Below, in pieces: positions 16,622 through 42,533 of a stretch of DNA of 64,000 nt. The position numbers and the translations under genes are program-made. Each line of letters opens with the position of its first letter. Within the stretch, counting starts at the first letter, position 1. Source of the stretch: Dudresnaya verticillata (taxonomy: Eukaryota). The notes under the pieces were generated by a model. It was not told where the DNA came from and did no database searches. It saw only the letters and a program-made list of their open reading frames with translations. The DNA is taken from positions 2,914,001 to 2,978,000 of the forward strand of contig OZ374557.1 in the NCBI GenBank assembly GCA_977862235.1, given 5' to 3'.

Positions 16622-16675
16622 AGGGGACGAAACATTAGGCACGTACAGCATTTATCATACTTCGTTCGGCGGCCT
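16622..16675 (+). repeat. Left terminus of the giant element (13-bp TIR + TTCGGCGGCCT)
   Basis: AGGGGACGAAACATT...TTCGGCGGCCT. Confidence 0.75.
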
Positions 16676-16939
16676 TAGCAGTGCGCAATGGCGGGTGGTC
16701 TTTCGGGACGTGCGGCCTAGAAGTATTCGAAAAAGCATATTACGAAATGGACCGGCCCCCCTCTCCGCTCACTGACGAGAGGTGCCTAGATGGGTGGCGA
16801 AGGCGCGCGCACAGCCGCCGCCGGCACGCGCGCGCCATGATCAAAGTGCATTACAGCAGTACTCTGCATCGTGTCACGCAGCGTGACCAGTGCAAAACAA
16901 AGAGCCTGCATACTACATTTGCCATTTGCCAGGCATGTC

Positions 16940-18075
16940 GCCTGTAAAATTACTTTCTCAGCCATTCCGTTCTCGAAAATGTTTTCAAAGGCTGGGTAGG
17001 ACGTCCCTGAATTTCATTTCACAGCCACGTTTCCCTTGAATATACTTTCACAGTCCATTTTGCCACAAAGACCCATTTCGAAAGTTTGCTAACGATGAAA
17101 CTGCATACTATGCCACCGCTATATGGCCGTGAGCAATGCGAAAGAGAACATCACATTGGCGACATAGGACCCGTAAAAAGCATTTCACAGCCATAACGAC
17201 CGTAATCGATATTTTTACAGATTTTATGACTGTAAAAATTAATCTAGAGACAAACAGTCCGTTAAACGTGTTTTGTATCCATTACTTTCGACGGCTGTAT
17301 ACCTCCTGTCGGTTCTGTACCCCTCGTCATTGGTCGCATGGGTCGCATTTTTCGCATTTCCTCGCTCTTGAAGTTTATTTCACGTACATTTTACCACTAT
17401 ATCGTACTTTGCAGACATTTTGTCTGTGAACTAAGTTTTACAGGCAATAACGACCCAGAAACGCCGTTGGCAGACAATATGTATCAAAAGCATACATTCC
17501 CCAGCAACAGTCATGCAAATAGAGGTTTTACAGGCTCATCCTGGCAAGTCCTGCCAAGACTTCCCAGAGGGTCTTATAAATTCATTTCACAGACACTTAG
17601 GCCTCTTAAATTCATTTCAGAGACACTTTGCCCTGTTAAATGCCTTTCACATACCTTTAGCCTGTGCAATTCATTTCAAAGGCAAGTCTGTCTGTGAAAG
17701 GGGGTTTCCATACATATGATACGGCGTAAATCACATTTATTCACTGCAGATGATAGTTTCATGGTTTTATATCTGATACCACAGAATCAGCCTTTGATCT
17801 ATCTGCAGTTCTCGAAATGTTATTTATGAGGCCTGGAGCCCATGAAACATTGTTTCTAGATATGAGGTACGTAAAATGGATTTTCAAGGTCATCCAGACT
17901 GAGAAATGTGCTGCACATGCCGTGCTGTTCTTTAATTATAATTCAAGGTCCAGATATTTCCCCGCGGAATACATTTCACAGGCAACGGAATGTTGCAAAC
18001 AGATTTCACAGCCACTGTCACCCTAGAAGTATCTTTAACAGCTTCGAATGTCGTAGAAATTGCTTTCACAGCCCT
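16940..18075. repeat. Palindromic ~30-bp-period array 1 (left subterminal)
   Basis: For example 17577-17700: TAAATTCATTTCACAGACACTTAGGCCTCT / TAAATTCATTTCAGAGACACTTTGCCCTGT / TAAATGCCTTTCACATACC... Confidence 0.8.
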
Positions 18076-18236
18076 CGGTTCGTTTATTTCCCGTTTGTAG
18101 CTGTTCGTTGCACAATTACATCTTTCTAGTCTATATTATTCCTATGGAAGACGATGTTGTACTGCACAGTTAGCACATTATGCTAAGAATCTTTAAATTG
18201 GAAGTTAACAGAGGTAGTTTTGTTTAGTAATAGCAA

Positions 18237-20830
18237 CTAGTCTACAATCTTCTTGTCGAATTTGTAGATTGCTTCCTTAGCGTAGCTGCGAAACCTCGAA
18301 ACCATCATCGAAATAAAGTCAAACGTAAACAACCCCTTCTGGTTGAAGCGGTACATCTTCCAGGCCCTCTTTCGTCCCTTCAAGTCTTTATAGTTTGGGT
18401 ACTGCCTTCTTTCTAAGCATACATTACTTATGCGATCCATATATCCTTTCTTCATTCCATTGGCGACATGGGCGAGCGCATAGAATCCGCAAGTAGTGCT
18501 ATCCATCTACAATGGCCCAGTTATTATGGCACCAAGCTCGATGTAAAACTGTCTCAAAGACTTCATAGCCTTGGTAAAGCTGGGAGGGTCGCGCTCTTCC
18601 TTGTCCTTGAACTGTTGGAGACGCGTCCGGTATGCATGCCTCAATAACAACTCCAGAAGCAACATCACCGTATTGAAGACCTCTCCCTGATGTAGCTCGT
18701 CAAGGCTATCAAACATGAAGAGTAAAGGCTGCTTCATTTTGAGCTCATCCGCAAGATTAAACCCTTCTGGAAACGGGTGTTCTTCTAAAAGCTCGTCTAC
18801 TACGAAGCTGAGAACGATGGAAGATTTACACAATGCCACCATCTCGTAGTGCTTTCCAGACTCCCGATAGACAATAACAAATATACATTCCTGAACCATG
18901 AGAAGAGGTATGCTCCCTTTTGTCATGTAGCGGGTTAGACGGAGAGACAATTCCTCTTTCCCTACCCCGGCCTTCAATTCGTCTGAAAACCCCTTGGTAA
19001 GTAAAGTATCTGTGAGGAAACGACGTCGGCTCTTCCTTCATGAAATGGAAAAATCCCACGTACTCTCTCCAAGCATTGGCCTGCTAGATGCAAGGACAAA
19101 TCGTTGCATTTTGCAGTAGGGAAGCTAAAAAAAGGACCAAGTGCTTGCTCTGTTAGCGTTACGGCATCAGCCGTCTTAATACTAACTTCTCCTTCAGGCC
19201 AACCCTGAACTCTATACTTCGTCGTACAGGGGATCTTCGTAGCAACAAGTGATCCTTTTCCCTTCTTCTCGTTGACCAAACGGCTAACCATGACGACTTC
19301 AGCAGACTCAGTTCTTGTACCTGTCTCCAGGGCTACACCTTTACTGCCCTTCTCGTGTTCTCCATCTTCATTCCTCTGTTTCTTCTGCCCTGAGGTCTCA
19401 GGCACATTCTTCGCTTCCATATTCTCCTGGCAAGTATCAGCAACTTTCGGGGCTTTAGTCTTGACCGCATCGGCTTTCTTGCCCACCTTCCCAATACTTA
19501 ACTCATTAGCCTTGTCAGCTTTGTCAGCTTCAGCCTCTTTACTGCCCTTCCCATCCTCCCTGGCGCTGGATTTCATAGCTTCAGACTTTTCAACATCTGT
19601 ACACCCAACTGGACTTTCTCCCTTCTCGGCAACCACGACAGCAAGCTTGCCCGTACTGACATCCTTATTATCACCCCTGACAATATCTAGAGATGAAGAC
19701 TTGTTTGCTCCAAATTTAGTCGAACCCTTGACAGTGCTGATAGCAGTAGACTTAGCCGCTCCTCCCGTCCCTTCATCCTTGCTGGAGTCGACAACGGCAG
19801 ACTTCTCCGCTACTGATTTCTCTGCATTCTTGCCGTAATCGACAGCTGCCTTTATCTTCGATATAGCCTTATTGCTGTCCTTGGGCACATCAATATCAGT
19901 GTTATCATCCGTCCCGTCCACGTTAGGAGCATCAGCTGGTAGCGATGATGGACCGGCAAGGTTCTTAACACCCTTTCCAGCATGCTTGGCACTTCTACTG
20001 GGCACAGTCTTGCCAGCTTTGCCACTGGTCAAGTTAGCTTTGGGTCCCTTCCCGTTGCCTGCCTGAATATTCACTCCCTTTGCTTCTCCCGACTTGCTTT
20101 TAGTCTTTCCAGATGTTTTCTCTGCGTTCTTGGGGACAGGTTTCTTAGCATCCTTGTTTGCAGCCTTCTCCACAGATACCATATCCGTACAAGGAATGTC
20201 TTCTTTGGGTCGACTGGGCTTCTCAGTCTCGATAGAAAGGTGGTCAGATAAATCCAATTCAGCAGTACAGCGTCCTTCCGTCTTCTTCCTCTTCGCCGGT
20301 TTTGTGCTTCTCGGTCTTTTTGATGCCGGCTCTGGCGAAGAAACGCGATGAACAGAATTGTCCGTATTCCGCCTCTTCCTTTCCCCTTTTGTTCGTCTTT
20401 CAACAGTCGGTACGCCTTTCGCTGAAAGTTCTGGAGAATCCTTCATTCCGTTCCTCTGAGACCTGCTCATGATCCCAGGCTCTGATGGCATATCGGGCAT
20501 CACCCTAGTGCCAAGCACGCTCAGAAATGCGTCAGGAACAGGACCCCAGCATGGGGTGTGTGCGGCATACTCCTCGAACGCATCGACAGTTAGAACCTTA
20601 GCACTATTGTCGTATACCCTTGCATGCTGAACAATAAGGTCGCCCAGGCTATCTCCATGCAAAGATCCGCTATAGAAACGCCTGCAGGCCTCTGCCTCCA
20701 TCTCATGGAGTGCTAGACATTTGTTTACTTCTTGCCCATTCTCTTCGCCAATATCAGACCCATCGGCGGAGTTGGGTTCTGAAGCGGCACCGATAGATGA
20801 ATCCTCTCTAGCTTCACTAGAGTCAACCAT
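18237..20830 (-). pseudogene. Ulp1/C48-like protease with long K/A/D/E-rich disordered N-terminus
   Basis: SGKHYEMVALC (His), FMFDSL (Asp), GPL*MDSTTCGFY (Gln position is TAG; Cys); frameshifts near 18975-19070. Confidence 0.75.
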
Positions 20831-21444: not shown

Positions 21445-21725
21445 TTTTCTGAAATTCAGTAAATTACAGGTTTCATTTCAATTCATGTCGATGTAATTGT
21501 AGCCGAGCTCAGGAAAGCAGTGTCTGGCCCCCTGTACACCAGAAGCAATATTGAGGGCGCAATGACATTATAAAATCAACTTCATGGCCTGTACGCCTGT
21601 GAACTATATCTTTTGAGACATAGATGGCATTATGTATACTTTCACAAGCCAAATGGCGGTGAAATGCACTTCCCGTTCCTGGCGTCTGGGAATCAGGTTT
21701 CACAGGCAAGCATAGAGATTTCATG
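21445..21725. repeat. Palindromic array 2
   Basis: CCTGTGAACTATATCTTTTGAG, TATACTTTCACAAG, GGTGAAATGCACTTCCC, CTGGGAATCAGGTTTCACAGG at ~30-bp spacing. Confidence 0.65.
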
Positions 21726-22170: not shown

Positions 22171-23916
22171 CTACCCATAGATCATCTTTTCCTTCCCAGT
22201 CACTCTATCCCAATCTTCAATAGATAAATCCACTGCATCCAGTGCTTCATGACAATGAACGAGCAGCTCCTGGGCTATGGACATTGCCTCCTTTAGAAAG
22301 GAAAGAGTATCGCACAGAGCAATCTTGACATCTCCATACGCCCTAAATCGCTCTTTATCCACCACAATGCGCCCAATCTTGCTAACGGCCCGTTGAGAGA
22401 TGGGAATATCTCTATCATCACATTCTTCTCGCAACGAAGACAACAAATAAGACTGAATACGAGCTCCAATTTCTTCTCTTGAGGCAGAAGGGGACAAACC
22501 AGCTTCCGAAACACCCGCGCCTGAGGTTCGAAGTCTCTCAGCAGACTTCCAAATGTCTCCAAACATAGGTCTACCTCTACGGAAAGGGTTGTTTTCAGCT
22601 TCACTGGGATTCATCTTCTGTGTGGACACAAGGACTCCACTTAAAACTCCAAGAAGACTGAAATCCAAATCCACAGTGTCAAGCTGACATACGTTCTGCA
22701 GACAAGTATCCATTTCGGTAATCGCGGTCCCCAGCGATGAATGCGAACTGTCACGTACCGATTTGAAGGCAAGCTTGCGGTCTCTTTCTGAATCACGTGC
22801 TGTGTACAGGAGGTTGAATAGGCACTTGAATAGGGAAGAAACCATAAGGGCTCGATTCAGCACCGTGTAGTTCTCATCGTCACCAAGGACAATGCTGCGG
22901 TCAGACTCTCTCACAATTAAGGTCGAGTCAATAAACATCCTTTGCCATGAGGCATATACTCTGTGTACTCTGAATAGAAATTGTTGCTGCCCACTTGATG
23001 CTTTCCCAGACTTAACTTCAAGAGCATATGCAATTGCAGTTGAAAGCAGCATCGACGGCGTGAAGCGGCCATATACGGCTCCTGTATCTCGACCATCTCT
23101 TGCGAGTACGTTCCGAAGAAATGATCTAGGAATCTCGTGCAGCTTGTCCAATTTCTCATCCACCCTAAGCACCTTCCCCTTCCTCCCTCCCTTACCACGA
23201 CTTTCGATTTTCTTTTTGTCTTCTGTACCAGCCTCCCATCGTAGAGACAACACAGAGGATAAGTCTTCCGCTGCGGTATTGCACAAGGACGTCTGATTAC
23301 GCCTGTAGATACGCTTCAAGTCTTTGTTAGTACCGCTTTCGGTGTCCACATCTTGCTTCTTCAAAACGTTGGCCACGAATAGGAGAGCCTTTCGACGCGC
23401 TTCATTGTTTCGAAAATGCTTCCTCATAGTTTTCCTTAGCGACGAAGCAATCAGTAACGTATGCAATCGGTCAAGACCGGAGTCAAAGCAGCTATCGCCA
23501 TCAAATTTGCACCAAGAGGCAAATGAAATGTTAATGACCTCGGCGATTCTCCTCTTCAACATTTCTCTTCGTGTTGTGTCTTGGACAAGCTTCTGAATAT
23601 TGAGCTTGCTTTCCTCTCCTGCTGGACGACGCTTGTACGAACCCCTTGTCTTCGCAATAGTCTTTTTTCCCTTGGACGTTCTGGTCGCAGTATCACCAGA
23701 TACACCTGAGTTACCCGTACCTGACCTTCTTGCTTGACACCATATCTCAATACCCCCTTGCAAAACGATGTGGGATTGGAAAGATATACAGGCGTGATTG
23801 CCACCAGCTTGCGCGAGACATACAGTTCCGGGGTTGATTGGCGCTCGCACGCAACGCGCGCTGAGAAGCGCAGGAGAATAAAGGCGCTTCGCTCTCGAAA
23901 GAGTGCAGAACCGCAA
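22171..23916 (-). CDS. Orphan protein (581-aa open frame), basic N-terminal half, predicted helical
   Basis: Long uninterrupted ORF, co-oriented with neighbours and bracketed by arrays; start codon uncertain; no motif recognised. Confidence 0.7.
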   Translation of the reverse strand: MRFCTLSRAKRLYSPALLSARCVRAPINPGTVCLAQAGGNHACISFQSHIVLQGGIEIWCQARRSGTGNSGVSGDTATRTSKGKKTIAKTRGSYKRRPAGEESKLNIQKLVQDTTRREMLKRRIAEVINISFASWCKFDGDSCFDSGLDRLHTLLIASSLRKTMRKHFRNNEARRKALLFVANVLKKQDVDTESGTNKDLKRIYRRNQTSLCNTAAEDLSSVLSLRWEAGTEDKKKIESRGKGGRKGKVLRVDEKLDKLHEIPRSFLRNVLARDGRDTGAVYGRFTPSMLLSTAIAYALEVKSGKASSGQQQFLFRVHRVYASWQRMFIDSTLIVRESDRSIVLGDDENYTVLNRALMVSSLFKCLFNLLYTARDSERDRKLAFKSVRDSSHSSLGTAITEMDTCLQNVCQLDTVDLDFSLLGVLSGVLVSTQKMNPSEAENNPFRRGRPMFGDIWKSAERLRTSGAGVSEAGLSPSASREEIGARIQSYLLSSLREECDDRDIPISQRAVSKIGRIVVDKERFRAYGDVKIALCDTLSFLKEAMSIAQELLVHCHEALDAVDLSIEDWDRVTGKEKMIYG

Positions 23917-24409
23917 GGAGGTTAAACTCAGCGCGTCGTTAGACGCAGGTGCTCACAGGTACGATTGACAGGTAGACACCCGGGCGTGTCGCCCGAAGGA
24001 CACGCTCGAGCGATCGCTCGACAGGTCGCGCTCGTCGTCGCGCGCGCGGAGGTAGATCAAGGAAAACCTTCGCAGATATCACGACGTATCTCTTGATCGA
24101 GCCTGTTCGAATAGGGAGAGCACAGGGAGAGTGCACACCCAAGGGCAGGTGTGGGGGATTGCGGGAAGTTGCCAGAACGCGTGTACTGGACGACCAACCG
24201 CGAAGATTTGAGGCTATTGCGTTTGAGGTGAAATGGCCCAGATGGGTGTGGGCCGGCGTTGATTCCATGGAATGAGTGTACTCAACGGTGGCCATTCAGT
24301 CTGAAACAATCGAAAATCTAGAGTTTGAAAATATTATCATTTTTCTCCGAAGGCATTATATTTTCTAGGATCCATAGCAGTCCATATTTTTCAATCTACT
24401 GAAGTCAAA

Positions 24410-24765
24410 TATCTGTGAAATACATTTCTGGGACTATTAGACTGTTTATTAATTTCTAAGGCCGTTTGGGCTGTGAAAGTTCTTTTACGGGCACAAAAAT
24501 TGGCGGAATCTGATTTTGACGTTCTTTACCTCAGGACCAGAGGTAGTCGTCGTGGAGGTTTCATTGCGCGGGATGGTAATCAATGTTAACAATTGTTAAG
24601 TTAGATTTTCATCAACTGCAAATCACCTGAATGGCGTTTCATAGCCACATGTGCCTGTTAATAGTAGTTAATTGGCACGTACGCCTACTAAAAGCATTCT
24701 ACAGACAAATGAACCTGTGAAACCATTTCTACGAGAAGGTGTGTCTGTGGATTTCTCTTTACAAA
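24410..24765. repeat. Palindromic array 3
   Basis: CTGTGAAATACATTTCTGG, CTGTGAAAGTTCTTTTACGG, CCTGTGAAACCATTTCTACG, CTGTGGATTTCTCTTTACA. Confidence 0.7.
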
Positions 24766-25090
24766 AAGCGGGAAGACACTTAGTTTATTGGTAACTACAG
24801 AACAGGTCCAAGGATATGGAAACGTAAATCTTCAGTAATGCGTGCGCGCAGCAGCATGCCCGCATTAGCAGCTGCTGAAGAAGTCTGTTTCCATGTCTAG
24901 TGCGATGTATGCTAGGCATACGCATATGGAAACGCTTGAAATACGTACTCTATATCGGAAGGGAGCTATGTATAACATCCACAAGTTTATTGAATTGACA
25001 GAAGCACGCATGCCTACGCTTGCATCCATGTCGAGATTCTTTCACACTGACTAGGACCGCTGCAAATAAGGTTCCACACAGTTGCGAATC

Positions 25091-28000
25091 TCATGACCCT
25101 TGTCCATTGGACTGATTCTCTTGAGAACGCAAGCTGTATCCGCCGCGGGTTCGCATCGGGCGCTGCATGTCCTCAATATCTTTGCAGTGGCGCACGTCCC
25201 GTCTTCCGCGATCAGGAATAACGAATTCGATGCCAGTCCCATTCCTCTTTTGCAGGCAGGCATCCCAGAACCCATGCAACATGCGACTCTTCCCACAGAG
25301 TGTAGTGGTATCGCCTACCAAAATCAGCAGCTTCTTTGCCCGACTTGTTGCGACGTTGATACGGCGGAAGTCTTTTAGAAACCCGATATTTCTGCCAGAA
25401 TTACTTCTAGTCAAAGATATGATGACGATGCTGCGCTCAAGACCTTGGAGTGCATCAACAGAGTCGATGAGCACATCGAAATCCTTCCTCACCCTCTTGT
25501 CGGAAAGAAAACCGTCGCCATAGTATAGATGATCCCTGATATTCTGAACTTGTGAGCGATACGGTGCGGTGACAATGATCTCGCTGCACAGCTCCTCATA
25601 ATCTGGCCCACCAGAATCCCTAGAACTAGACATGATGTTCTTCAATCTCCATAGAACCCGATTAATTTGCCTGACCTCGAAGCTATTCGTGAACTTACCA
25701 CCTCCAGCAGACAACTCGAATCGGTCCAAACTCTTGGAGGTATCCATGAACGTGAATGGAGCAAAGCCATAGCGACCAGAATTGTAGGAACATTCGTACC
25801 GGTCAACCGAAGACGGGTGAAGAATGAGGTCACCATAAACCATTCGGCTTTGGATTCTGGCAATCGCAGGATGTGTACGGTATTGCCGACAAAGTCATGC
25901 TACCGGACAACGATAACGGTCTACCATGCGCTCAAATAGGGACCTAATTTGCATCTTGTAAGGCATACTGTAGTTGAAATGCCTCATCCTTGCAAGGAAG
26001 GACCCAACAGCAAACTGCGACAGCAGCACAGGGGGTAACTGCTTGTGGTATCCGCATATGACGACATGCAAGCGACCCGTCCCCTTCTTAGTGGTCTTGG
26101 CGGCAGCAGCGATAGGGATGAGACACTCCACTTCTGTTGAATTTGCACCCTCATCCACAATAACGACATCAAGGGGTACCTTCAACTCCTGCAGGACAGC
26201 ACTCGCTGCAGTTGAAAGCGTTGACAAGAACACGATGCATTCGCGTGCCATCGCCTTTCTGGCCTTGGTAGACGCGAAGTTACTTGGCTCGAAATGCTCC
26301 GATCCCTCCTTCTCCTTGTCGAAGATCTCTCTATCGAATACCAATGCCTTCTCGTTCAGAGAAATGTCCAGCAAATCCTCGAACTTGTAGCGCTGACGAC
26401 CAACCCTGACTACATCGGGTATAACCTTTCTACCCTTGCCATCCACGAATCCCATCTTGAGCTTGCGAGAGACGTTATCTACAGCTTGGTTGGAACTGTA
26501 GCACGCCAAAATACGCACCCCTTGGGGGTTATTACTGCAACGCGTCCGACCATCTTCCTTCTTCAGACGGTTGCGCTCTACAGCACCTTCACACAGATGG
26601 CCTGCAGTAGAATGATGCAGTAAGGAAGCCACGAGAGTTGAAATAGTAGTCGTCTTTCCCGTTCCAGGAGGACCAACGATCTCGCAGAAGGATGAGGATC
26701 CCCTCCCCATATCCCCCATTTCGCACAGAACCATGCTCACAGCATTCTTCTGAGAAGGGTTACACTCCGCCTCCCCCAAGCCATCCAAAAACGCCCGGCA
26801 GCCACTGTCGACACCAGTACTCAGCTCCTGGTCAAGAACACTCGAGCGGAGCGCTGGACGCCGAGCAGAAGAGCCAGTTCCAGGCTTGGATCCAGGGCCT
26901 TGCGGTAGATTATCGCCGAAGAGATACTCTAGAAGTCTCTGCGGGGCCCTGCAGATGTTGTGGGTAGCTCTGAACATGCGGTAGAATGCGACGAAGGACT
27001 CCAACGGTTCGAAGAAAATCGTATCGCCCACATCCGGACGCCCCCTATCCAGTTGACGTCGGTTTCCACACATACGCCCATTGACAGTCTCGATTCGCTT
27101 CTCTACCCCCATGTCGTCCACGCTCTCACTGTCATACGAGAGACTGCGGCACAGGAATAGCACCAACGGAGAGTTTGGCCTTCGGCATTCACCTTAGCAG
27201 TGTTTCTTATAAACCCTATGCACAGAGTCATGCCAGCCACATCGTCAACTAGCTTCTTGTTCAGGTCGAGATTCTGGCTTGTACACTTGAAGTTGTAGAG
27301 TAGACTTGACGGCTGTGCCTTGTTGATACGAAACTTAAACATTGTGGCTTCCTTCTCCACCAGGGTAGACGTGAACTTCTCTTGCGACCATTTCCCTTCG
27401 AGAGTATCTCGAATCAATCGACATTTGTTATCGAGAGCGTGGCGGATGAGGAAGTTTAGCTCGAGGTACAGGAACACCTTCAAATGATCACTGTACGAAG
27501 AGATATCTTTTGCTTAAGACGCCTCAGGAAGCATGAAATGCTTGTTGACCGAAAGGAAGTGCTCAAGCCAGTAGTCGTCGTCAAGAGTTACACTCCAAAT
27601 CTTCCTGTTAGATGCTGTGGCCGATCTAGGGTCAATAACCGGGAAGGTAATGGCGGCGTGCACAATTTACAAGTCAACATGAAGCTTCCTGTCTTCTAAC
27701 TTGTTCTTCATCCGTTCCACCTTCAACGTTTCGAGTTCCTCACTCGTACGCTTTCTGGTCTCAGCAATTAGACCACAATTGCTGCCTTCATCTTCCTTTT
27801 GCTCGTCCTGATCGGCTTCGTCTCCTTGTTCACCTTCAGCACCTTCCAAAACCATGTCCTCGTTGTCGGACTCCGGCACTTCAACATCGAAACCCTGATG
27901 ACCAACTTCGTAGCCTAGTACTCCGTTGCGCATCTCCTGGAGATTTCCGCAGAACTCTTCCTGGATAGAAGCCGGATTACGCTTGAAGCGGGTGTGCCTT

Positions 28001-28908
28001 GGCTTGTCCCTAGCGGGCGCGCCATTCGGAAGTTTGGGAAGCGGTTTCCTAGCCTCGTCCAGGAATCCCTTAAGATAATCACTGTGCCCGGGATGTGACG
28101 GATTCGCAGGGTCATCAGGATTCTTCTCATTATGCTTGGGGTTAAGCCCTGTCCAAGCAGGAAAGTCTCCAAACATCTCCACGGCCTTCTTGCTGCGTGT
28201 GGTAGGGCCGCTTGTCCTCCCACGCGACAGCCAACCTGGCTGACCTAAGGTTGGAATTCCCCCAACGGGGCCGGTGTCTTGGGCGTGGTCGTGGCTCGAC
28301 CCCGCGTGGTGAACATGAAAACCTGCACTCTTCGTAGAAGGAGCGACTTGATCAGGGACTTCCGACAGCGTGCGGGCACTTGCAACGCGTCCGACAGAGG
28401 GGCTGGGACCCGTTAGATCCGTCCTTCTCCTCTTGTTCCCGAAGCTGTTTCCTTCTTGCCGCGGTCTGCGGGCCTCTTCTAGGTCCGCCAACTGAGCGTA
28501 CGATGAACGCGGTCTGCGGGCCTCTTGTAAGTCCGCCAGCTGAGCGTGCTATGAACGCAGTCTGGGGGGCTCTTCTAAGTCCGCCAGCTGAGCGTACGAT
28601 GAACGCGCAGCGGGCTTCGCTACATCCGCCTGTGGTTCCGCGACATTCAGGCGCTCGGTTTCTTTCTCGATTTCTCTCTCGATATCCCGTAGCTCCTGAG
28701 TCACCCGCACACTTCTCTTGCGCAGCACTTCCATCCTTTCCGAACTAAGCCTGCCAGTCTTCGCGATGGCGGGCGTGACAGAGTCATCCGCATCTTCTCG
28801 TAGCCCTGATACGTCCATGACGCGCGCACTGTAGAAACTTCCGTAAGGAACAAGGTGTATCGCTTTTCCGGGATTGTTTGCCGCACGCACGCACACGCAA
28901 AAACACAA
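25091..28908 (-). pseudogene. Sen1/senataxin-Upf1-like superfamily-1 helicase, several stops and frameshifts
   Basis: GPPGTGKT, ILACYSSNQAVDNV, IVDEGA, GYHKQLPP, SLFERM, APYRSQV, SVDALQGLE, IGFLKDFRRINVATSRAK; upstream SYSDHLKVFLYLE segment; ORFs 28549, 27667 and 27103 share a frame. Confidence 0.9.
28461..28604 (-). repeat. 3 x 48-bp coding tandem repeat (RSSYAQLADLEEARRP-like)
   Basis: GCGGTCTGCGGGCCTCTTCTAGGTCCGCCAACTGAGCGTACGATGAAC x3 with few substitutions. Confidence 0.9.
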
Positions 28909-29499: not shown

Positions 29500-29895
29500 C
29501 AAAATCAGTGAGTTTCTCACCTTTCCAGACTTACGACCTGTGAAACCCGTTTGTAGGTATACGGTCTTCAGACCGTGGTTATTGTCAGTTACAATTGTAA
29601 GCACAGGTTTGTTCGTAGCAATTGAATGTAGTTAGATTTCGGGTCTCGCGGTGCTATTGCGGTGCTGCATTCTGGGATCATGAGCATTGGAATGCATGCC
29701 TCACGCTTGCATGAAAGACCGTACACATTGTAGTTGCAGTGACGCTTGTGGGATTGGAGAATGTAATTGTTCCCGACCTGTGAAATATACTTTCCGAGAC
29801 ATTCAGACTGTGACATGTATTTTCGCAGCTATCACATCTGTAAATTTATTTTTTAGCGTTTTCCGGTCTGTGAAATCATTATTTGCAGACCTCCA
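29500..29895. repeat. Palindromic array 4 (divergent intergenic region)
   Basis: CCTGTGAAATATACTTTCCGAG, CTGTGACATGTATTTTCGCAG, CTGTAAATTTATTTTTTAG, CTGTGAAATCATTATTTGCAG at ~30-bp spacing (29777-29890). Confidence 0.75.
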
Positions 29896-31079: not shown

Positions 31080-34000
31080 ATGTCCTGTACCGATTCGTCT
31101 AGTCCGTATCGTGACTATGTGCGCTCGTTTGGTGCAGAGTATGATTCCGATGAAGATAGTGGATCTCACGTTCTCAGTAGTGACCGCGGCGCCTCTACCC
31201 TTCCATACAGCAGTGTGAAGTGGTCTAGGGGGCTTCTACTAGTACATCATTACTTCAAGGCCCTGTGGATGCGAGCACCCTAACAGGAGCCCCTGGGAGA
31301 GACAGGTCTGAATGTCTGGGCATTGTCTCAAATTGTGGATTTAGTGAGGAGGAGGTGAGGGAGGTATTGAAGGATTTTGCAGAAGAAGCACATGGGGGTA
31401 CGGCGTTACCTGACCCTATCGGTACGACGACGGATATGTATGAGAGGTATCTTTCAGACCCGAGGGGAAGCATGCCGTACCACGACTTGCCTCTACGGCC
31501 TGACCTGGGTCTTGTTAGGCCGCGGTATCAAAATCGGGCAGGGAGTGGTCATTCGCTAGGAAGACGTGCTAGGAGACAGGTTGATTTCATTAGAATGGCG
31601 TACGCCTTGCAAAGCAAAGCCTTGCTTTGCCGCTTCATTGCAACAATTCCTAGCAACGGACAGGAAGGTGTTGCAAATCAATTGCTGCAGTACCTTGAAG
31701 TTACTGCAAGGACTGGCTCAACTGGACAAAGTTCCAATTCGAGGACAATTAGCTCTGCAGAGTTGGGGGGTCGACTTGCCGCTCTCCTTGAAAGCCATTC
31801 TAGACGAAAAGAGAGGAACAATGGTTTGGAGCTACTTTTCGGTCCAGTTATTGGTATACGCGCACGGTTCTCTACATCAACAAAAACTATTCCCTCAGGC
31901 GGTCAGGGAGTTGCATCCAAGTCTAGAGAACGCCACACGTGTTGTACATGGATAGACAAGGCGGGGTCAATTCGCTGTACTTGCATTGGGTATACCGATT
32001 ATCGTGTTAGAACGAATCTGGATGCATTCAAAGATCCGTGCTGTCATCATGCTGGAGTATTTACATCTCTACTGGACGAGATATCAACCTGTTTGTCAGG
32101 CTATCTACCTACCACACGAACGGAATGCGCACTGGCGTTAATTGAAATGTGCAAAAGTAAGTTTAGCGATGTGGAATGTGCTCTATTCATGGTCGACCTT
32201 CCTCATCTGTGGAACCACCATGGAACAGCGATATCTGTAATTGCTAGGGCGGATCCACTCTCTCCAGATGAGCTTCTATACATTCCGATAAGGCGTACGA
32301 TGCGGAATGGGGAGCACAGGATATGCGCCTTCTGCGATTTGTCAAAGACGACTAGTTGTGAGCACGTCACTTTATTCCATTCACTAGATACTCATGGAGG
32401 GCCGGTGAACGGTACTGAAGGGTCTGGACCACAGCAGCGTCCGAGAACTATGCAACACGGCCCGGACTGGAATCCCATGCTCGACCTACAATCAGTATCC
32501 TATTTCCCACTTCCAATTGTCAACTGCACACGGAGCATTCGAGTTGACCGGGAAGTATTGCAGCTATCGCAGAAGTGTGCCGCATTTCTCGTCAAGGCTC
32601 CAAAGATATGTATGGTATGCAACAGTCTACATTCCGAAAGCAGTAGGAAACTTCAGGAGGGTATTCTCTTATTCTCGGCTGGATCTTGCCGAATGCATAT
32701 AGAGATATTCCAGTGCAGCAGCCTGTCTTGCAATGCGAAGATTCATTCTGAAGGGCGGGACCATGGTATATTACTCCTGATGCTATCTTCTGCAGCTACA
32801 CATGTGGTACTCCGAGACATATTGACAGGTGTGTCTTTGACGAATGGAACTGTTAGCGGGCGCATACAGCAGTTCCACTCCACAATGCTCTCTAACATAA
32901 GTGCAGATTTAATCCCAGGGATTTGGTTGCAGCGCGACTCTACGTTGACACCAGAGCAGCAGTTCCAGAAACAAGTTGACAGGAATGTCCGAGACGGACT
33001 TTTCGATTTAGAAGGATATGATGCCCCCGCATCCCAATCGATTCAGGATGCACATGATGATTCATCGCATCCCCCCGGGGCAGGAGCGCAGCATGCACCA
33101 CCTCCTGTTAGAAATGTCTGGTCCGAAAGGAGTCCGAGAACGACGTCTGATGACGCGGGATTGTTGGAAAGCCAGCATGGGTGGCGTTCTGCAAGGTTGA
33201 TTCAGAAACCGTGTGTGGTTATGTGTGCAAGTTAATGGTTGTTGCCCCACCGCGAAGTTTATTTCAGTGCAACACATGCGAGGCGACTGGACGGATGCAT
33301 GCAATTTGCGCGGATGGCATATGGAGTGGGTATCAGAAAAGGTTGCGAAGGAAGTTTACAAACGTGTCCCAACCTTGCGAGGCGCTACACGTGTCTAGGG
33401 CAGTCTCCCGGAATGCTACGAGAAAGCGTCCGCTTCCCGGACTGCTTCGCCGGGAACGGACCGCGCTCCTACTGATCTCTGCTATAGAGGGCTCCTCAAT
33501 TACCATTACTGGCCAAACGGTTTCGGCATGTGCTTCAGTAGTTCGTCTCATCAACCCCTCTGTTCTTCCAACCAGCTACTTCCAGGAGTCCATATGTGGT
33601 AGAAACGGTGGTGACTGTAGCGATGACATAGGCGAATGCGTACTGAAGAGGATTCGGGAGCTCACAACTTTCATTTTTACTGAGGAGGTGTTGCTTCTAC
33701 GTCTGTGTAGGGCGCTTCTGAAGTACCTTGTGAAGGTATGTCAGCGCAACAACAGGAATGCGCTGACAGCTGCGCATGAAGGAGTTAAGGAAACTGTCAC
33801 GGCATATACTTCAAGGGATAGCGTTGCTAGTATAGCTGATACTCAAGGTTTGCCGTGGAACAGTAGCTTCACATCAGATCGAGACGAGGAAGAAGAAGTC
33901 CTAAGGGACTGCCGACATGACTTGTTCATACTTTTTAAGGCATTAGTGCAGGCCCCATGTACTCAGCTTGTGACAAAGAAGTAGCTTCAAAGTCTATCTA

Positions 34001-35058
34001 CTGTAGCTAACGCTTGCATGGCAGGAATTGAAGGAGTTAAAGAACAACTGAAGGAGACAACTGTTCCGATTGCACAGAGGAGTCAGACCGAAAACTATAA
34101 TGTGCTAAGGTTTCTACGGATACTGCGCGGAGGACTCTCCGCGACGTTGTACTTCGAAAACGTGTGCAAAGTTCTGCTGCAACATATAGGGAAATCGCTT
34201 CATGATGTGGCGAGACGGGGGAGGGACTTTTATGAATTCTATGTTACATTGCCACCGGGAGTCTGCAAAGCTTCCAGTTTCGCAAAAGACTGGAGAAGTG
34301 CTGAATTTGAATTACTGCGAGCCAAGTACTTGGGAATTAACCTTGCCAATAGGCTTGAAGCGAATATTGACAATCAGTACGCATCTGCTTGTAGAACAGG
34401 AGTTTTCTTCCCCGCCCACCCACAAGTGCGTCCGATGCCGTTTAATGACGAGTTAAAGGGTATATCTCAGGACGATTTCTTCGGTGTCTGCTCCAAGCGT
34501 TACTTGCAGAAGAATAAGAGTTACACTCCAGGCGCGTTGACATTCTGCTGCTCTTGTTCATCTCCTATTATCATGGGGTTCAAGGTGCTGGAGAAGAATG
34601 AAGGGCCGAGGTCTGTACTGGATGCCATCGTGTCGCGGTTTCCCCGTCTACCTCGGCATATTATCTACGACTTTGCCTGCGGACTGTACAACAGCGCAGC
34701 GCATACTCTTTGGTGGGCCATTGAGGACACAACGATAACTTCTGATTCCCTTCATGCTCTAAATCACAATTGCTCGCCGAGTTACGTCCCTACCTCGCAC
34801 GATAACCTCAACATGTCCAACACGGTCGCCCATGAACAGAGGAATCGCGCAATTTCGGAAATCGAGAAGAGTCTCCGCTACTGTTCCCAGGAGTTCTATA
34901 TAGCTCTACTGGCATATTAAGTCTGTATTCTAAACTTGAAGGCCAAAGCGAAATCATCGCCAATGTACAACAGCAGGCCAATGGATGTTTCTGAAGCAGA
35001 TCTTCACTGGACGTACTTCAGTTGCCTCGAACTGACATGTCCGTGTTGTTCAGAGTAG
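31080..35058 (+). pseudogene. KDZ (Kyakuja-Dileera-Zisupton / HMGXB3-like) transposase with N-terminal SWIM/CxC-like Cys-His clusters
   Basis: CTC...CCHH, CAFC...CEHV, CMVC...CSSLSC; AICADG; CSKRY...TPGALTFCCSC; EGPRSV; IIYDFACGL; DSLHALNHNC; NTVAHEQRN. Frameshifts near 31270 and 33200, stops at 33982 and 34918. Confidence 0.88.
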
Positions 35059-35139
35059 TTTTCTGTAGGAGCGTGCGTGCAGGACCACTAAACCCGTTTT
35101 GTAAGCTTCATGATTGCATAGTAGAATGTCCTAACTAAT

Positions 35140-35360
35140 TGTCTGTGAACTTATCTTCGCAGGGCGTTTTGGATCAGAAAACTACTTCGGCTACTCCGGG
35201 CCTCAGAATTTCATTTCGGAGCCCTTAGTGACCAAAAGACTATTCCAAAGACCAGTAGCTTCAGGAAAGAGTATTTTCGGACTTCGTGGTTCCGAAAACA
35301 ATATGTTCAGATTTATTGCTCCAGAAACGAATGCTATCAGACCTATTGCTTCACAAATGT
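35140..35360. repeat. Palindromic array 5
   Basis: CTGTGAACTTATCTTCGCAGG, CTCAGAATTTCATTTCGGAG and weaker units at ~30-bp spacing. Confidence 0.6.
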
Positions 35361-36505: not shown

Positions 36506-38805
36506 ATGCGTGTACTGGAAATCTTATTGCCGTGTCTACGGCGGATGTGTGGAAATGATTGCAGCGACGGTGTTCCTGCTAGTTTATCGCCAGTTGTTTC
36601 CACATTAACAACTATAATTGAGTGCGCAAGATGGGTGGAAGATGTCAGTAAGAGCAAGGCAGGAATCGGTAAATTGAAGGTTCTCGTGTGCGTGAAAGAA
36701 TATAGTCCGACTGATGGCGGAGAGTTCGAGACGGGACGTAGACCGAATGCAGCATTAGGGAAGATCTTTCGCATCTGGGGAGCACCTGGTACTGCTGCTC
36801 CCTACGTGCAGGCACCTGCACGTGTGCCTGGCACAAGTCGTGAGGAGGGGGCGACTAGGCATGGAGAGCGTAACGAAACACGGCCCACCGAGGGTGAACG
36901 GAGCCAACCAGGAAGACCGCGACTACCGATGGGGAACTCCCGCCTTGACAGTCATGGAGATGGACCGCCAGGCCTACAGTGACGAGATGTGGGCAATGCA
37001 AAGTCGAAAAGCACACCTCGGCATCCCACGAAACGCTCAAGGCAAGAAAGGTCCAGAACGACTGTGAATGACGGAAGTACTTCGAACTCGTGTGTAACGA
37101 CAGGCCATCGAGAGCCTTCGCCTTCTTCAGCTTCGATTGGAAACGGTCTTGAGAAGAATACGTCGGTAAACGATCGTTTCGATCCGCCGGCGGAAAAGGA
37201 GGCCTCTCACCAATCTGGGTTTGATGTGGAGGTTCCGATAGAAGTTTCTGCCCAGTGTACGTCTCTGCTACTGGATGGTGGAGGTCACATCACACACCCG
37301 ATTCGGACCAAGTACTATAGCTACAAGGACCTGCATGTGAATGAGTTGGTTTGGGCTGTGCAAAAGTTACGGGACATAGAAGTGAGGCACGTAGCGCAGA
37401 ACGCTACGGGGACTGTTTTAGGCGATACGATTGCTGCGCCAGATCAAATCAATACGGTTGGCGAGCTTGTTTACAACTCTCTAATCCGGAGAACGTTCGT
37501 GGGAAAGTAGTTAGAGTTAGAACGGTTTCTTTCGCACCTTGGATTGGAAGTGACGGGGAGATACAAGACTATGAGCAACTTGAAACCCTCTACGTGAAGA
37601 TGGATATCAAGAAGCCGGACAGGAATACGAAAACCCAGAATTTTGCTGCCCTTTGCACGAATCTGATGACGACTGGAATGGAGGGAAGTGCTGGCAAGGC
37701 GTTACTTGAGAAAGCAAAGCAAGGGATTGTCTTCCAGAAGTCGTGCAGGGTTTGGAGGATTTACACGAAGCGGGCAAGGGTAAAGCACAAGGGTACTCCG
37801 AAGGAGTCAGAGAGAAGGAATAGTGATACTAATGATACTAATCGGAGGGTAAGAAAGAAGGCGACCCGCGGGGAGACGAGCATCAATGACATGCAGTGCG
37901 TATGTGGAGGTCCCGAGAGGTGCGCGTTCGACCAACGCCCGGCATGCTCATTCATTTCGAAGGTGGATGGCAGGGACATCGAGGTTGGTAAAGGATCGGT
38001 CCACCCAGAAATTCGATTCTTCAAGGGAGGGAACGTCGCGGAAGGCGACATTGCTACTCGGTTCGCAAGTGTATCGCAGGTGGCAACGGATGCGGCTCCT
38101 GACTCCCTGCACGACTGTGAATCTGAGGTTGTTTTATGGAAGAAAGATGCTATCAAAAGGGTCTTAGTTAAAGGTCCATACGCATACACAGAAGAATCTG
38201 GTACGACTGGACGTTTTGTAGGCACAGCCATTATGGTGGATGATAGACCTTGGGAGGAACCTGATGTTGAAAGTTTTGCGCTCGGAAGGAAGAAAAGAAG
38301 ATCCAGCGCTGCCCGGAAATCTCAGATGAATATTGCAAGGGCAGTAACTCTGTGTGATTTCCGAATGAATCCAGAAACGCCTGGAGGTGCCACTTTTCAC
38401 TACCCGTACTCGGATTGGTATGAGCTTCCTTCCTGCCAGCATTTACTTGGCCATCACTTTTTGCAGAAGATTGTTCCTACGAAGCTTGAGGATCTTTCAG
38501 CTCCAACAGTTGTTCAGTTCCTTTGGGACGCTGGACAGATCTCAGACGATGAAGACCCGTGCTCACAGGTGACAGAAGGTCAACTACTATACTGGCTGTG
38601 CTATTTCCGGAAACAAGGCCGTGAAAAATACTTGGTGCACAGACGTTTACGAACACGAAAGCGAATATGCAGGCATTCATGCGCGTGGACTTACTTCCAC
38701 AGCTGCAGTGTCTGTGAAATTGTGTTCGAGGTCACGATGGCTGTGAAACTGTTACTCATAGACTTGGTAACCCAGAACCGTATTTCCCAGACCTGTTTCC
38801 TGTGA
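36506..38805 (+). pseudogene. Orphan gene (~700 codons), one in-frame TGA (36980) and a frameshift near 37505
   Basis: ORFs 36506-36982 and 36989-37510 are in frame; 37351-38805 continues in another frame; 3' end runs into array 6, so the true stop is uncertain. Confidence 0.6.
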
Positions 38806-38865
38806 ATTCATATTTCACAGGCGTCACGATCGTGGAAATTTGTTTCGGGGACAGGCTATTTCGGA
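38685..38865. repeat. Palindromic array 6
   Basis: CTGTGAAATTGTGTTCGAG, CTGTGAAACTGTTACTCATAG, CCTGTGAATTCATATTTCACAGG (38799-38821). Confidence 0.8.
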
Positions 38866-39900: not shown

Positions 39901-41594
39901 ATGGAGGTTTATCCGGTCAGCGCGACAGGACTTGATCGCTCGCAGACCAATGCTATCAAGGCCTTTCAGAAGGGAAAGAGTGTGGCTATTCTAGGCGGGG
40001 CGGGGTCTGGAAAGACCCATGTTTTGAAAGAAATTGTGAGACGCGCACGGTCTAGTTCCAGTGGTCACAAGCAAGTTGCGGTTTGTGCACTGAGCAATAA
40101 TGCTGCGTCCAATCTCAATGGATGTACGATGCACTCCCTGTTTTCCGGTCATTGTTCATGGGAATGGTCAAAGAGACATCTTTGGGAGAAGGTATCCGGA
40201 AATGAACGACTATGCGGTATTTTGAGGGCGATCAAGTGCTTAATCATTGATGAAATTTCTCTCATCAAAAGGAACGAAATTGAAGCAATCGAATATGTCC
40301 TGCGTCGACTTACGTCGCGGGAGGAGGACGCCGCATTGCCTATGGGTGGAAGACAGCTAATAACCGCTGGTGATCCCTTTCAGCTGGAACCTCTGGTGTT
40401 GAGGACACAAAGTGTTACTTTGAAACTTTCTTCCAATCTCGAGTTTGGTTTCTACTATTCACAGGATATGGAAATGGAGCTGTTGTTTTGCTAGACCATA
40501 ACTATCGTCAGAGGGAGGACAGTGTATTCTACTCTATGCTACAGAGATTTCGGTACGGCTCGCCCCGGGACTCTGAAATTGTTGAGCTAAATACAACAAG
40601 CGCGCAATCACGCAATGCTCCGCCCAGCGGTTCCACGCGTCTATGCCTGAAGAAGGTAGAGGTTACCGGTGTCAATGGAAGAGAGATGGAGAAACTAGAA
40701 GGCCATGATTTTGTTTGCGTTGGTGCGGACACATACGGCAGGCAACCATCAGACTCAGTGGCGAAGCGTTTGGAAGAAGTTGCCTCAGTAAGGTTGGTAA
40801 TAAGGAAGAACTGTTTAGTCGTGCTGACTCGAAAATATGGGGACTTCAACCCAGGATCTCGATTTATGGTCACGGATGTCGTCACCATGGCGGCGAGCTC
40901 GCCTATATACGGACGTGACAGTAGAAGACAGTTCGATGCGAAGCATGTATCCGTCACTTTAGCGCCGCTCTCTAACTCGTCCTCGCAAACGTCGACGCTA
41001 TCGCGTCTGCCGGGTGCACGGACTATCTGCGTGCGACCGATGAGCTTCACGGTGCACAACTACGATACTAGCGTTGCTGGAACTAGGGTACAGCTTCCCA
41101 TTCTTGTCGCGTATGCGATGAAAATCCATCGCAGTCAAAGAATGAGTCTCGAAAGCGTAGCGGTTGACTTTTCTGGAATGGGAGCATGGAGGCCGAATGG
41201 GATGGTGTATGTCGCACTCTCAAGATGCATTAGGAAGGATGCTTTGTGGATAAGGGGGCTGTCAGGAGACCATGTGAGAATAATTGAAAGAGCTAAGGTG
41301 GCCATGTCGGGCATAATTTGCTTTGCGAGGAGCTATCCGCAACGATTTATTGGGGAGAAAGCGTTGAAGCAGTACATGACGGATATTAGTAAGTGCAATG
41401 TACGATCGAGTCGACTTGGAGGACAAACTGCGACAAGTGAGGAAGACGAGAAGGATGAAATAGACCAAGCAGTATGTCCAGAAGGTGTGAAGAGAAAAAG
41501 ACCAGACACTGGAAACCATATCTCGAGAAAGGAGGACATGAACCCTAATGTCATGAGATCCTCGAAGCGACGTCATCCACAGCAACTGCGCTAG
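39901..41594 (+). pseudogene. PIF1-family DNA helicase, one frameshift near 40395
   Basis: GGAGSGKT, IIDEIS, GDPFQLEP, (shifted frame) FFQSRVW...LDHNYRQRED, RVQLPILVAYAMKIHRSQ, GMVYVALSR. Confidence 0.92.
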
Positions 41595-41744
41595 ATAAGT
41601 TGTAGAACTGATAAGATAGCTACAGAGTAATGGTAGAATCGATAAACGAAACAGACGTACGCTTAAGCAGAATGTCTTAAGAAATACAACATCATGAGGG
41701 TATATTTTGAGATCTCCAGTCCGGTGATGAATGTTGGTTCCGAG

Positions 41745-42305
41745 TCTGGGAAATATAATTCACTGACAAAGATGTCTGTGTAATGCACTTTCCAGATGTG
41801 AAACCTGTGAAATAAATTTCACAGGCATTTTTATTTGTGAAATAAAGTTTTGAGACAATCTGATCGTAGGAATGTATTTCACAGACTTTCGTAGCTTGAA
41901 ACATTGTTTCACAAGCAGGGGGGCTGTGAATCTCGTCTCAGAGGCTCACGAATAGTTAAATAGTACTGAAGATACGTATGGAAGTAAAACAGAAACGAAT
42001 GAAATGTAGTACAGACACACGCCCAGAAATTAACATTGTTCTAATCCGATAATCGAGGAATACCAGAAAAGGGACTTAAGAATTGTACTCGCGTTTCACG
42101 ACAAAGTCGGAAACATGGTTCAGAAGGTTTACTTAGGCAGCGCTGACATACTGCAGTGTAGTGTAATATATGTAGTACATGTAGATATGTAGATATGTAG
42201 AGAAAAATAAATGTTGAGAACATACAGCGCAAAATGTAATTTTCAGTACCAAATGGCTCAAAAGTGCAATTCACAGACACTGCTGCTCCAGAAATTCACT
42301 TCTAG
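41745..42305. repeat. Palindromic array 7 (right subterminal)
   Basis: Perfect-arm CCTGTGAAATAAATTTCACAGG at 41804-41825 flanked by ~30-bp-spaced degenerate units; more units at 42225-42305. Confidence 0.85.
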
Positions 42306-42493
42306 AATCGCTGTTTGGGACTCGCATAGGCCGCCGAAACAAAACGGCCGGACATCGGGCCATGAAAAAAATATTTCTAGGCCGCCGAAACAAAAGGGCT
42401 GGGCACCAGCGGGGGAACGGAATGTTTCGGTCCATGAAAAAATATATTTCTAGGCCGCCGAAACATTACGGCTTGCAAATTGTTTCGTCCCCT
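42292..42493 (-). repeat. Right terminus of the giant element (3 x GGCCGCCGAAAC + TIR)
   Basis: TAGGCCGCCGAAAC repeated three times, ending TGTTTCGTCCCCT. Confidence 0.8.
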
Positions 42494-42533
42494 GCGTTCA
42501 ATTAGCCGTAATTAAGTACGCATATGTGGCAAC

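Follow-up and report, generated by a model that had tools for sequence, protein, structure and literature searches.

A 26-kb stretch, probably from a red alga, likely represents a dead six-gene transposon of the KDZ type

How cut-and-paste elements of 20–30 kb persist and multiply is the question that this locus raises. In the window, the 64-kb stretch of DNA that we analysed, a first-pass annotation had read positions 16622..42493 (25,872 bp) as a giant KDZ transposon with a helicase-rich cargo. We conclude, with a probability of roughly 0.6, that this 26-kb stretch, from a probable red alga, is a cut-and-paste DNA transposon of the KDZ type with six genes, present here as a single dead copy. 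Six gene-like units, broken or doubtful, do lie in two divergent blocks: an Ulp1-like gene, a 593-codon orphan and a Sen1-like gene on the left (−), and a transposase, a companion gene and a PIF1 gene on the right (+). Five of the six are broken by stops and frameshifts, confirming that the copy is decayed. That the stretch is one family-level unit is highly probable; where it ends, and whether the left block belongs to it, are judged from this one copy.

The proposed element has inward-facing exact termini. The 13-bp left terminus AGGGGACGAAACA occupies 16622-16634 (+), its reverse complement lies at 42481-42493, and these form the sole inward-facing pair of exact termini in the window. The shared subterminal motif TTCGGCGGCCT is also present as first described, once on the left at 16665 (+) and three times on the right at 42328, 42379 and 42452 (−). 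The left end (16622..16727, +) carries a second, degenerate TTCGGCGGCCT near 16712, and the right end (42286..42493, −) holds its three motif copies in units of 51-73 bp. Inverted 13-mer pairs more than 5 kb apart number 65 in the window, many without relation to any known element, and so the 13-bp pair alone is not beyond chance. The ends are nevertheless credible because a 12-mer of the terminus recurs exactly four times and carries the subterminal motif. A second, inverted copy of the right end (42534..42750, +) sits 40 bp outside the element; about 150 of its bases are nearly identical to the right end, except for a 51-bp indel, and it contains an internal-repeat site at 42726. Further out, the terminus at 43329..43443 (+) resembles the left end and belongs to a diverged relative; a degenerate inverted terminus closes it, and it lacks a target-site duplication (TSD). 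An Rfam search of 16000-44000 returned no match.

The absence of a clean TSD, already noted at first pass, is confirmed. The left flank (16614..16621, GAATTCGG) and the right flank (42494-42501, GCGTTCAA) agree at four of eight positions, so the element is without the 8-bp duplication that was looked for. Four or more matches in eight would arise by chance with a probability of 0.11, and decay of a true duplication to this extent at 10% divergence with a probability of 0.005. No TSD was found in any register for the four left/right terminus pairings tested, and a neighbouring MULE 4 kb away has kept a perfect 9-bp TSD. Two left-flank-like sites, GAATTTCGG at 42679 and GAAATCGG at 45047, were rejected as TSD partners because no terminus precedes either. 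Later rearrangement of the right end, with its cluster of extra termini, is the best explanation for the missing TSD.

The gene at 31080..35058 (+), with frameshifts near 31.25 and 33.2 kb and stops at 33982 and 34918, encodes the predicted transposase. An RNase H-like D-D-E core with YD, DxxH and E motifs marks the KDZ superfamily, and alignment places the core residues at D 33313, D 34669, DxxH 34744-34755 and E 34834 (+). The D-D-E is intact, with D506, D531 and E561 invariant in all 24 aligned rows and the first D conserved in each of the 18 rows reaching it. A SWIM-like cluster at 31976 (+) follows a CxC-x18-CxH pattern and aligns with relatives, and a CxC4-like cluster at 32585-32890 (+) is matched by a profile of seven CxC4 segments at E 9e-18, a score driven by the two closest relatives. 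The proposed KDZ identity thus stands on the core and both clusters, but Pfam KDZ (PF18758) does not match the window's own protein; nor does Pfam SWIM. Among 32 relatives, five match Pfam KDZ, all below its cut-off (best E 1.8e-5), and the window's core matches two of those five at 1e-20 and 8e-15; eight match CxC4, three of them above cut-off. Judged by sequence, the transposase is KDZ-type, with Pfam KDZ reached only via its relatives. Our transposase tree, made by a quick method, has 94 rows, none of them a named reference element. Searches of viral contigs and of genome contigs with the transposase and the terminus pattern found nothing.

Both helicases anticipated at first pass are upheld. 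The Sen1/Upf1-type SF1B gene (25091..28818, −) has four internal stops, a frameshift near 27.19 kb and a 48-bp tandem repeat in its 5' part, and its predicted protein matches AAA_11 (4.9e-36) and AAA_12 (3.5e-36), both above Pfam cut-offs, with yeast Sen1 as best PDB match (1.4e-35). An intact homolog of 1,167 aa, P0187, is 48% identical (608 bits), and all other relatives are distant. Membership of the Sen1/Upf1-like SF1B family is a solid prediction, and orthology to host Sen1 is no part of our claim. Equally solid is the predicted stand-alone PIF1-family helicase (39901..41594, +), broken by one frameshift at about 40395, which matches Pfam PIF1 (PF05970) at 3.5e-20, with 73 bits against a cut-off of 25.9, and Pif1 in the PDB at 8e-16. 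Of the families suggested for profile searches, AAA_11, AAA_12 and PIF1 therefore match, whereas KDZ and Peptidase_C48 give no match on the window's proteins. In viral contigs, P0187 found nothing and PIF1 one marginal locus (L011, E 5e-4). A nested Helitron was rejected as the source of PIF1, as no Rep family was found among the 16 element ORFs scanned, and no long ORF lies upstream of PIF1.

The SUMO-type protease fared less well. The putative Ulp1-like gene (18237..20830, −), with one frameshift near 19.0 kb, has a long K/A/G-rich N-terminus followed by His, FDSL-Asp and x-D-x-x-x-C-G-F-Y in Ulp1 order. This His-Asp-Cys order was judged by eye, and the Gln position is a TAG stop (18509). 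Support for Peptidase_C48 or Ulp1 was absent from Pfam, from PDB sequences and from our own profile; hhalign aligned the Cys block alone, at 3% probability; and the predicted fold (pLDDT 37, Foldseek blank) is too poor a model to judge. Weak NACHT and CheA matches were rejected. The Ulp1 identity, suggested by motif order alone, is thus unproven. We compared ten related loci, all from one other assembly and 1.2-13.4 kb long: a canonical Ulp1 gene adjoins the transposase in four of them (Pfam C48 was checked for L001 and L005), and the window's ORF has no detectable kinship to the Ulp1 of these loci.

The left-block orphan (22171..23952, −), first given as 581 aa, is present as an ORF but runs 593 codons between stops, the first ATG lying at 23562, codon 131. 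It has no Pfam match and no homolog among 7,999 candidates, and is predicted, at low confidence (pLDDT 37), to be all-helical. Neither this orphan nor the Sen1-like protein has a homolog in any of the ten related loci, which are only 1.2-13.4 kb long. The right-hand gene (36506..38805, +), interrupted by a stop at 36980 and a frameshift near 37.5 kb, can no longer be called an orphan, since its homologs adjoin related transposases. It shares collinear blocks with L001:2139-3089 and L004:3847-5260, and a profile of these two regions has this gene as its sole match in the window (E 1.7e-5). The homology is remote, the best single block scoring 33.4 bits against a shuffle maximum of 33.1. A BAH-like reading made by eye was dropped, with no support from Pfam, a PDB profile or Atlas (best 0.80). 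An ORF at 35674 suggests that the gene may begin further upstream.

PIF1 homologs (30-49%) lie within 4 kb of the transposase in two of the ten related loci, L001 and L004, and the companion homolog occurs in the same two, in differing order and orientation. In these loci, the transposase core shows only about 50% identity, and DNA similarity does not extend beyond it. As all ten loci come from one assembly, the linkage of transposase, PIF1 and companion draws on two genomes. Because PIF1 and the companion also adjoin related transposases in another assembly, they likely serve the element, and we consider them probable working accessory genes.

A 30-bp repeat with a 20-bp palindrome ties the two blocks together, as first suggested, and is present in all seven non-coding intervals of the element. 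On the left it forms an array at 16938..18075, with palindrome CTGTGAAAT-NN-ATTTCACAG plus a spacer (TRF period 30 at 17577-17678). The repeat profile places further sites at 21593..21710 and 24409..24765, in the divergent intergenic region (29534..29888), directly past the transposase (35139..35226), in an array at the end of the companion gene (38683..38855) and in a 30-bp-period array at 41742..41948 with a near-perfect palindrome at 41805. The exact 8-mer core of the repeat occurs 21 times in the 25.9-kb element versus twice in 38.1 kb of flank; 100 simulations gave a mean of 2.1 and a maximum of 6. The profile yields 52 strand matches, merging to 41 sites, with none in 16.2 kb of coding DNA and three outside the element, and gaps of 25-34 bp make up 25 of the 38 short gaps between sites. 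Trained on six right-block seeds, it detects 26 sites in the left block's 5.5 kb of non-coding DNA, with two in the left flank, none in the right flank and one in coding DNA; trained on 12 left-block seeds, it finds 13 sites in the right block. Specificity was measured against the 38 kb of flank in the window. The ten related loci hold five scattered matches, and the family is absent there. One repeated signal recurs in every intergenic gap, and the stretch is therefore likely a single jumping element.

The repeat bears directly on the possibility that recombination or a nested insertion brought two related elements or halves together here. In that case the transposase, companion and PIF1 would form a right module, and the Sen1-like, orphan and Ulp1-like genes a separate left module derived from a non-autonomous or otherwise different member of the family. 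Such a junction would account for the missing TSD, the divergent blocks, the local pile-up of termini at 42.5-43.4 kb and the restriction of homologs in related loci to right-block genes. However, both blocks carry the same repeat, and between them lies no terminus (up to three mismatches) or subterminal motif (up to one), save isolated degenerate 13-mers without the motif. We regard this alternative as unlikely. One mobile unit, as first inferred, remains the best reading given the repeat cross-training and the PIF1/companion linkage, although the 8-bp TSD test fails.

Similarly improbable is a single transposon that picked up its extra genes passively from the host, in Pack-type fashion, and makes no use of them in its life cycle. 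Sen1 and Pif1 both belong to gene families of the host, and gene sets vary, a third gene in L001, L004 and L005 being absent from this copy. Giant Ectocarpus elements are also described, in the accessible part of that study, as carrying unrelated passengers (PMC12477816). Against passive capture, protein-level conservation of PIF1 and the companion persists next to transposases that are only about half identical in their cores, the Sen1-like protein differs greatly from canonical Sen1 and yet has its intact 48% relative, and the element's repeat brackets each gene. A decayed host-gene cluster beside a solitary transposase and chance inverted 13-mers would fit the missing TSD and the frequency of 13-bp inverted pairs in the window, but is very improbable given four exact terminal 12-mers with subterminal motifs, a repeat family confined to the interval, broken genes in a proportion unlike host genes and the transposase-PIF1-companion linkage conserved elsewhere.

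For the single element that we prefer, other KDZ elements suggest that the transposase would recognise and bind the repeats at and just inside the termini and excise the element, and that insertion would leave an 8-bp duplication. PIF1, a DNA helicase of 5'-3' polarity, promotes long repair synthesis and removes G4 and R-loop blocks. In our preferred model it would enable repair synthesis over the full 26 kb at the donor-site break, and a giant element would thereby increase in copy number. The Sen1-like enzyme would resolve RNA:DNA hybrids and terminate transcription where genes are tightly packed, and the Ulp1-like protein would remove SUMO. The 30-bp palindromic arrays would be bound by a dimer of one of the two unknown proteins, which would mark the element as self by analogy with VANC for VANDAL. 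These specific roles are tentative. More doubtful still is the full proposal of a red-algal giant-KDZ lineage with a complete self-maintenance kit of PIF1 donor-site copying, a Sen1-type R-loop helicase, a SUMO protease and a dimeric array reader.

A KDZ lineage that keeps PIF1 across deep divergence would make it possible to test directly if such elements supply their own help with gap repair or replication, and a Sen1-type helicase carried by a transposon would link R-loop control with transposition. For a self-recognition protein, the palindromic arrays are a ready probe. Additionally, 'gene expansions' of Pif1, Sen1 and Ulp1 in seaweed genomes may be transposon cargo.

Helitrons are mobile elements with a PIF1-family helicase, to which their HUH Rep is fused. 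The present element shares such a helicase, but here PIF1 stands alone, no HUH Rep was found, and the element has a DDE enzyme between inverted ends.

KDZ elements of giant size that carry accessory genes are known from Ectocarpus, where KDZ-1 to -5 span 8.9-30.3 kb and selection is expected against giant size (PMC12477816), and in Chlamydomonas, where Zisupton-3_cRei reaches 31.7 kb (PMC9977147). The present element resembles them in size, opposite-strand genes, a pseudogenised transposase and complex, tandem-repeat-rich termini that are sometimes repeated and, in Ectocarpus, typically start GGG(G) (PMC12477816, PMC9977147). They differ in having 8-bp TSDs and one or two genes, and a helicase is noted in none of the seven Ectocarpus KDZ rows (PMC12477816 supplementary file 1). 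With Zisupton/KDZ elements more broadly, it shares inverted termini, extra ORFs and a KDZ-type DDE core with CxC4-like and SWIM-like clusters (PMC12730594, PMC11343200, PMC12810828), this core with its clusters being a layout called canonical for Zisupton (PMC11343200). In contrast, its terminal repeat is just 13 bp plus subterminal motifs, and it has no TSD. The exact repeat and motifs provide the terminal inverted repeats of a strict Zisupton, but we do not file it as one because the 8-bp TSD is absent (4/8). No TET/JBP gene was found in it. The available portions of the Zisupton/KDZ descriptions make no mention of PIF1 or Sen1-like genes (PMC12730594, PMC11343200, PMC12810828). Thus, the first-pass view of an unrecognised helicase cargo holds to the extent that, in the literature as far as it was accessible, helicase-bearing DDE transposons and giant cargo-bearing KDZ elements are in print and a KDZ element with PIF1 or Sen1 was not found.

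Red-algal Plavaka, Mutator and Zisupton elements carry PAG1-3 accessory genes and share with this one giant DDE architecture, a mobile accessory cassette and inverted-repeat arrays proposed as self-binding sites; going by the domain descriptions in the accessible text, the PAG2 (methylase, SET) and PAG3 (ParB, 2OG oxygenase) domains were not detected here (bioRxiv 10.1101/2025.02.11.637652). VANDAL elements, of the Mutator superfamily, likewise array an element-specific short motif in non-coding tandem repeats, absent from coding DNA. Their motif is 9 bp and non-palindromic with a known binding protein, the only self-recognition protein described for such arrays in the available text, whereas here a 20-bp palindrome would have a putative binder (PMC5735166). 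If the self-maintenance reading is true, this would be a second, independent VANDAL-like self-recognition system, and the element the first DDE transposon with two superfamily-1 helicases. AcademH and KolobokH are also DDE transposons with an encoded helicase, there of DEAD/Helicase_C type, whereas here the two superfamily-1 helicases occupy separate genes beside a KDZ transposase (PMC10799480).

We assign a probability of about 80%, judged from one copy, to the reading that window positions 16622-42493 (25,872 bp) held a single mobile unit of six genes, as the first-pass annotation proposed. A repeat common to both gene blocks, and PIF1 and companion genes beside related transposases, support this reading; the single copy and the lack of a target-site duplication (TSD) weigh against it. 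Our strongest evidence for placing both blocks in one family is the internal repeat, which cross-predicts between them. The motif TTTCACAG/CTGTGAAA makes up half of a 20-bp palindrome, which itself lies in a degenerate tandem unit of 30 bp. The motif has 21 copies within the element and two in the 38 kb outside, one of them in the extra right end. Merged repeat sites number 41, all of them non-coding by coding limits drawn by hand, and are present in all seven intervals of the element. To avoid circularity, the seeds of each block were used to predict the other: 6 right-block seeds recovered 26 sites in the left block and 12 left-block seeds recovered 13 in the right, and at a stricter threshold the cross-trained profiles detected 1-2 sites left of the element and none to its right. 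No sites were present in three non-coding stretches of the flanks (4 kb, with a somewhat higher GC content). The repeat was not found in ten related loci, in keeping with a signal that evolves fast and is specific to its family; VANC targets show this behaviour (PMC5735166).

The annotated 13-bp inverted termini with a shared subterminal motif are present. AGGGGACGAAACA lies at 16622 with its inverted copy at 42481-42493, and TTCGGCGGCCT occurs as one copy plus one degenerate copy by the left end and as three copies, arranged in 51-73-bp units, by the right end. An isolated inverted pair of 13-mers has no significance by itself in this window, which holds 65 such pairs more than 5 kb apart. 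We accept the ends as real because the terminal 12-mer, with exactly four occurrences in the window, is accompanied each time by the subterminal motif or by a copy of it with one mismatch. Two extra termini lie outside the element: one at 42534, 40 bp beyond the right end and inverted relative to it, and a left-end-like one at 43329. The former is nearly identical to the right end over ~150 bases except for a 51-bp indel and diverges beyond. The sole inward-facing pair of exact copies is 16622 and 42493. Between the extra termini, 42750-43328 is GC-rich, with a 27-bp tandem repeat at 43025-43090.

As the annotation had noted, there is no clean TSD: the element flanks agree at four of eight positions, and none appeared in any register or alternative pairing with the extra termini. 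Four matches arise by chance at 11%, whereas a true TSD at 10% divergence would carry four changes only 0.5% of the time, and the neighbouring Mutator-like element (MULE) retains a perfect 9-bp TSD. Thus, we conclude that the TSD is absent rather than worn; its loss and the clustered termini point to a later rearrangement.

The 9.3-kb MULE (3058-12326) has 165-bp TIRs (83% alike) and contains a weak Ulp1 match (E 0.03) and a SWIM-bearing MULE transposase; among its minus-strand ORFs is one near 9100-10370 with repeats rich in Gly, Asn and Arg. A C2H2 zinc-finger ORF (14772-15578), probably a host gene, lies 1 kb left of the element. A broken Gypsy LTR retrotransposon with a chromodomain (45063-56434; RT, RNase H, integrase, chromo; 794-bp LTRs, 96.5% identical) is followed directly after its 3' LTR by foldback-like nested inverted repeats (56454-58106; arms 31-386 bp, 68-90% alike).

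The transposase (31080-35058) belongs to the KDZ superfamily, as annotated, although this assignment comes from its D-D-E core and its KDZ- and CxC4-positive relatives; Pfam KDZ did not match the window protein itself. Most of it can be aligned with P0003 and P0005, intact relatives of 1,190-1,206 aa, and relatives carry Gln at both of its internal stops. About 285 bp (32920-33205), which may be an insertion, intron or linker, are missing from these two proteins. A profile combining the window transposase with two near relatives matched 1,079 proteins at E ≤ 0.001. Among 32 relatives scanned, Pfam KDZ matched five, below cut-off, and CxC4 matched eight, three above cut-off; the window core matched the KDZ-positive proteins P0098 and P0151 at 1e-20 and 8e-15. 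Across 24 aligned rows D506, D531 and E561 never vary, and the first D is kept in 18 of the 18 rows spanning its position. Upstream of the core are a cluster resembling CxC4 and a pattern resembling SWIM; KDZ, CxC4 and SWIM form the canonical Zisupton layout, as outlined in PMC11343200. We do not claim strict Zisupton membership, because the TSD test failed.

In a quick tree (94 rows; the minimum was 130-165 aligned residues of the core, and matches below this and loci L007, L009 and L010 were left out), the window transposase groups with seven related loci in a 22-row clade (SH-aLRT 96), nested in a 45-row clade. We infer a probable red-algal host because this larger clade contains P0026, which shares its cluster with a Porphyra umbilicalis protein.

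The ten related loci (1.2-13.4 kb), whose names carry one common assembly prefix, came from a scan of metagenome contigs. The two with the most upstream DNA, L001 and L004, have a PIF1 homolog <4 kb from the transposase (30-49% identity by segment), and the intervening gene shares several collinear blocks with the companion (36506-38805, plus strand). Taken singly, these blocks match weakly (pairwise E 1e-4 to 2e-3; 33.4 bits versus a shuffle maximum of 33.1); with a profile of both genes, the companion was the sole match below E 1 in six frames of the 64 kb (1.7e-5, 0.009). The order is PIF1, reversed companion, transposase at these loci versus transposase, companion, PIF1 in the window, and DNA similarity is restricted to ~160 bases of the transposase core. 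Of two annotated orphans, the 593-codon ORF, for which no homolog was found, keeps that status, but the companion has homologs at L001 and L004. A 173-codon ORF without a match (35593-36114), between transposase and companion, may be the companion's 5' part or a seventh gene. Canonical Ulp1 adjoins the transposase in four of the ten loci and a further gene of no assigned family in three; the Sen1-like and 593-codon genes appear in none of these short loci.

A conserved gene 3' of the KDZ transposase (L001:7467-8891, minus; L004:11401-12608, minus; L005:7707-8491, plus; ~40% identical) has no Pfam match and is missing from the window; by eye, it may be a degenerate member of the 2OG-oxygenase fold, like PAG3. 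A shared non-coding stretch of ~100-150 bp recurs near several related transposases (L001:10200-10383, L004:1300-1470, L002:6240-6500, L005:4810-5110), perhaps as a terminus or as part of a small repeat family. Fragments upstream of the transposase in L006:1-3000 are, judged by eye, possibly akin to DIRS-type reverse transcriptase and RNase H.

Both annotated helicases hold. The Sen1-like gene matches Pfam AAA_11 and AAA_12 (125 bits each), and its best solved-structure match is yeast Sen1. The sequences place it in a distinct conserved lineage, not as a recent copy of ordinary Sen1, because P0187 (1,167 aa, encoded on a 4.1-kb contig) matches it at 608 bits versus 126 for yeast Sen1, with the alignment extending into the N-terminal part; P0187 was the sole match at E ≤ 1e-30 among 7,995 candidates. 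The PIF1 gene stands alone; no Rep partner turned up among the element ORFs. In the supposed Ulp1-like ORF the His, Asp and Cys motifs are arranged as in Ulp1, but all profile tests were negative, and its Ulp1 identity is a guess. Stops or frameshifts interrupt five of the six genes; the copy, rightly described as decayed, is dead.

By analogy with other KDZ elements, the DDE enzyme would act at the complex termini in cut-and-paste transposition. Going by the general biochemistry of these families, PIF1 could help repair synthesis to fill long gaps at the donor site, the Sen1-like enzyme might clear R-loops, the Ulp1-like protein would remove SUMO, and an element protein of unassigned family may bind palindromes as a dimer.

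KDZ elements have been seen to jump with 4-8-bp TSDs, as summarized in PMC12810828. Giant KDZ elements are described at 30.3 kb in Ectocarpus (PMC12477816) and 31.7 kb in Chlamydomonas (PMC9977147), Bangiophyceae Zisupton elements carry PAG2/PAG3 (bioRxiv 10.1101/2025.02.11.637652), and AcademH and KolobokH are helicase-bearing DDE elements (PMC10799480). In the literature passages covered we found no KDZ element with a PIF1 or Sen1-like gene; Repbase, the Bostrychia supplements or older accounts could hold one. Giant size is already known for KDZ elements and helicase cargo for DDE elements, and the combination of KDZ with PIF1 and Sen1-like genes is apparently new.
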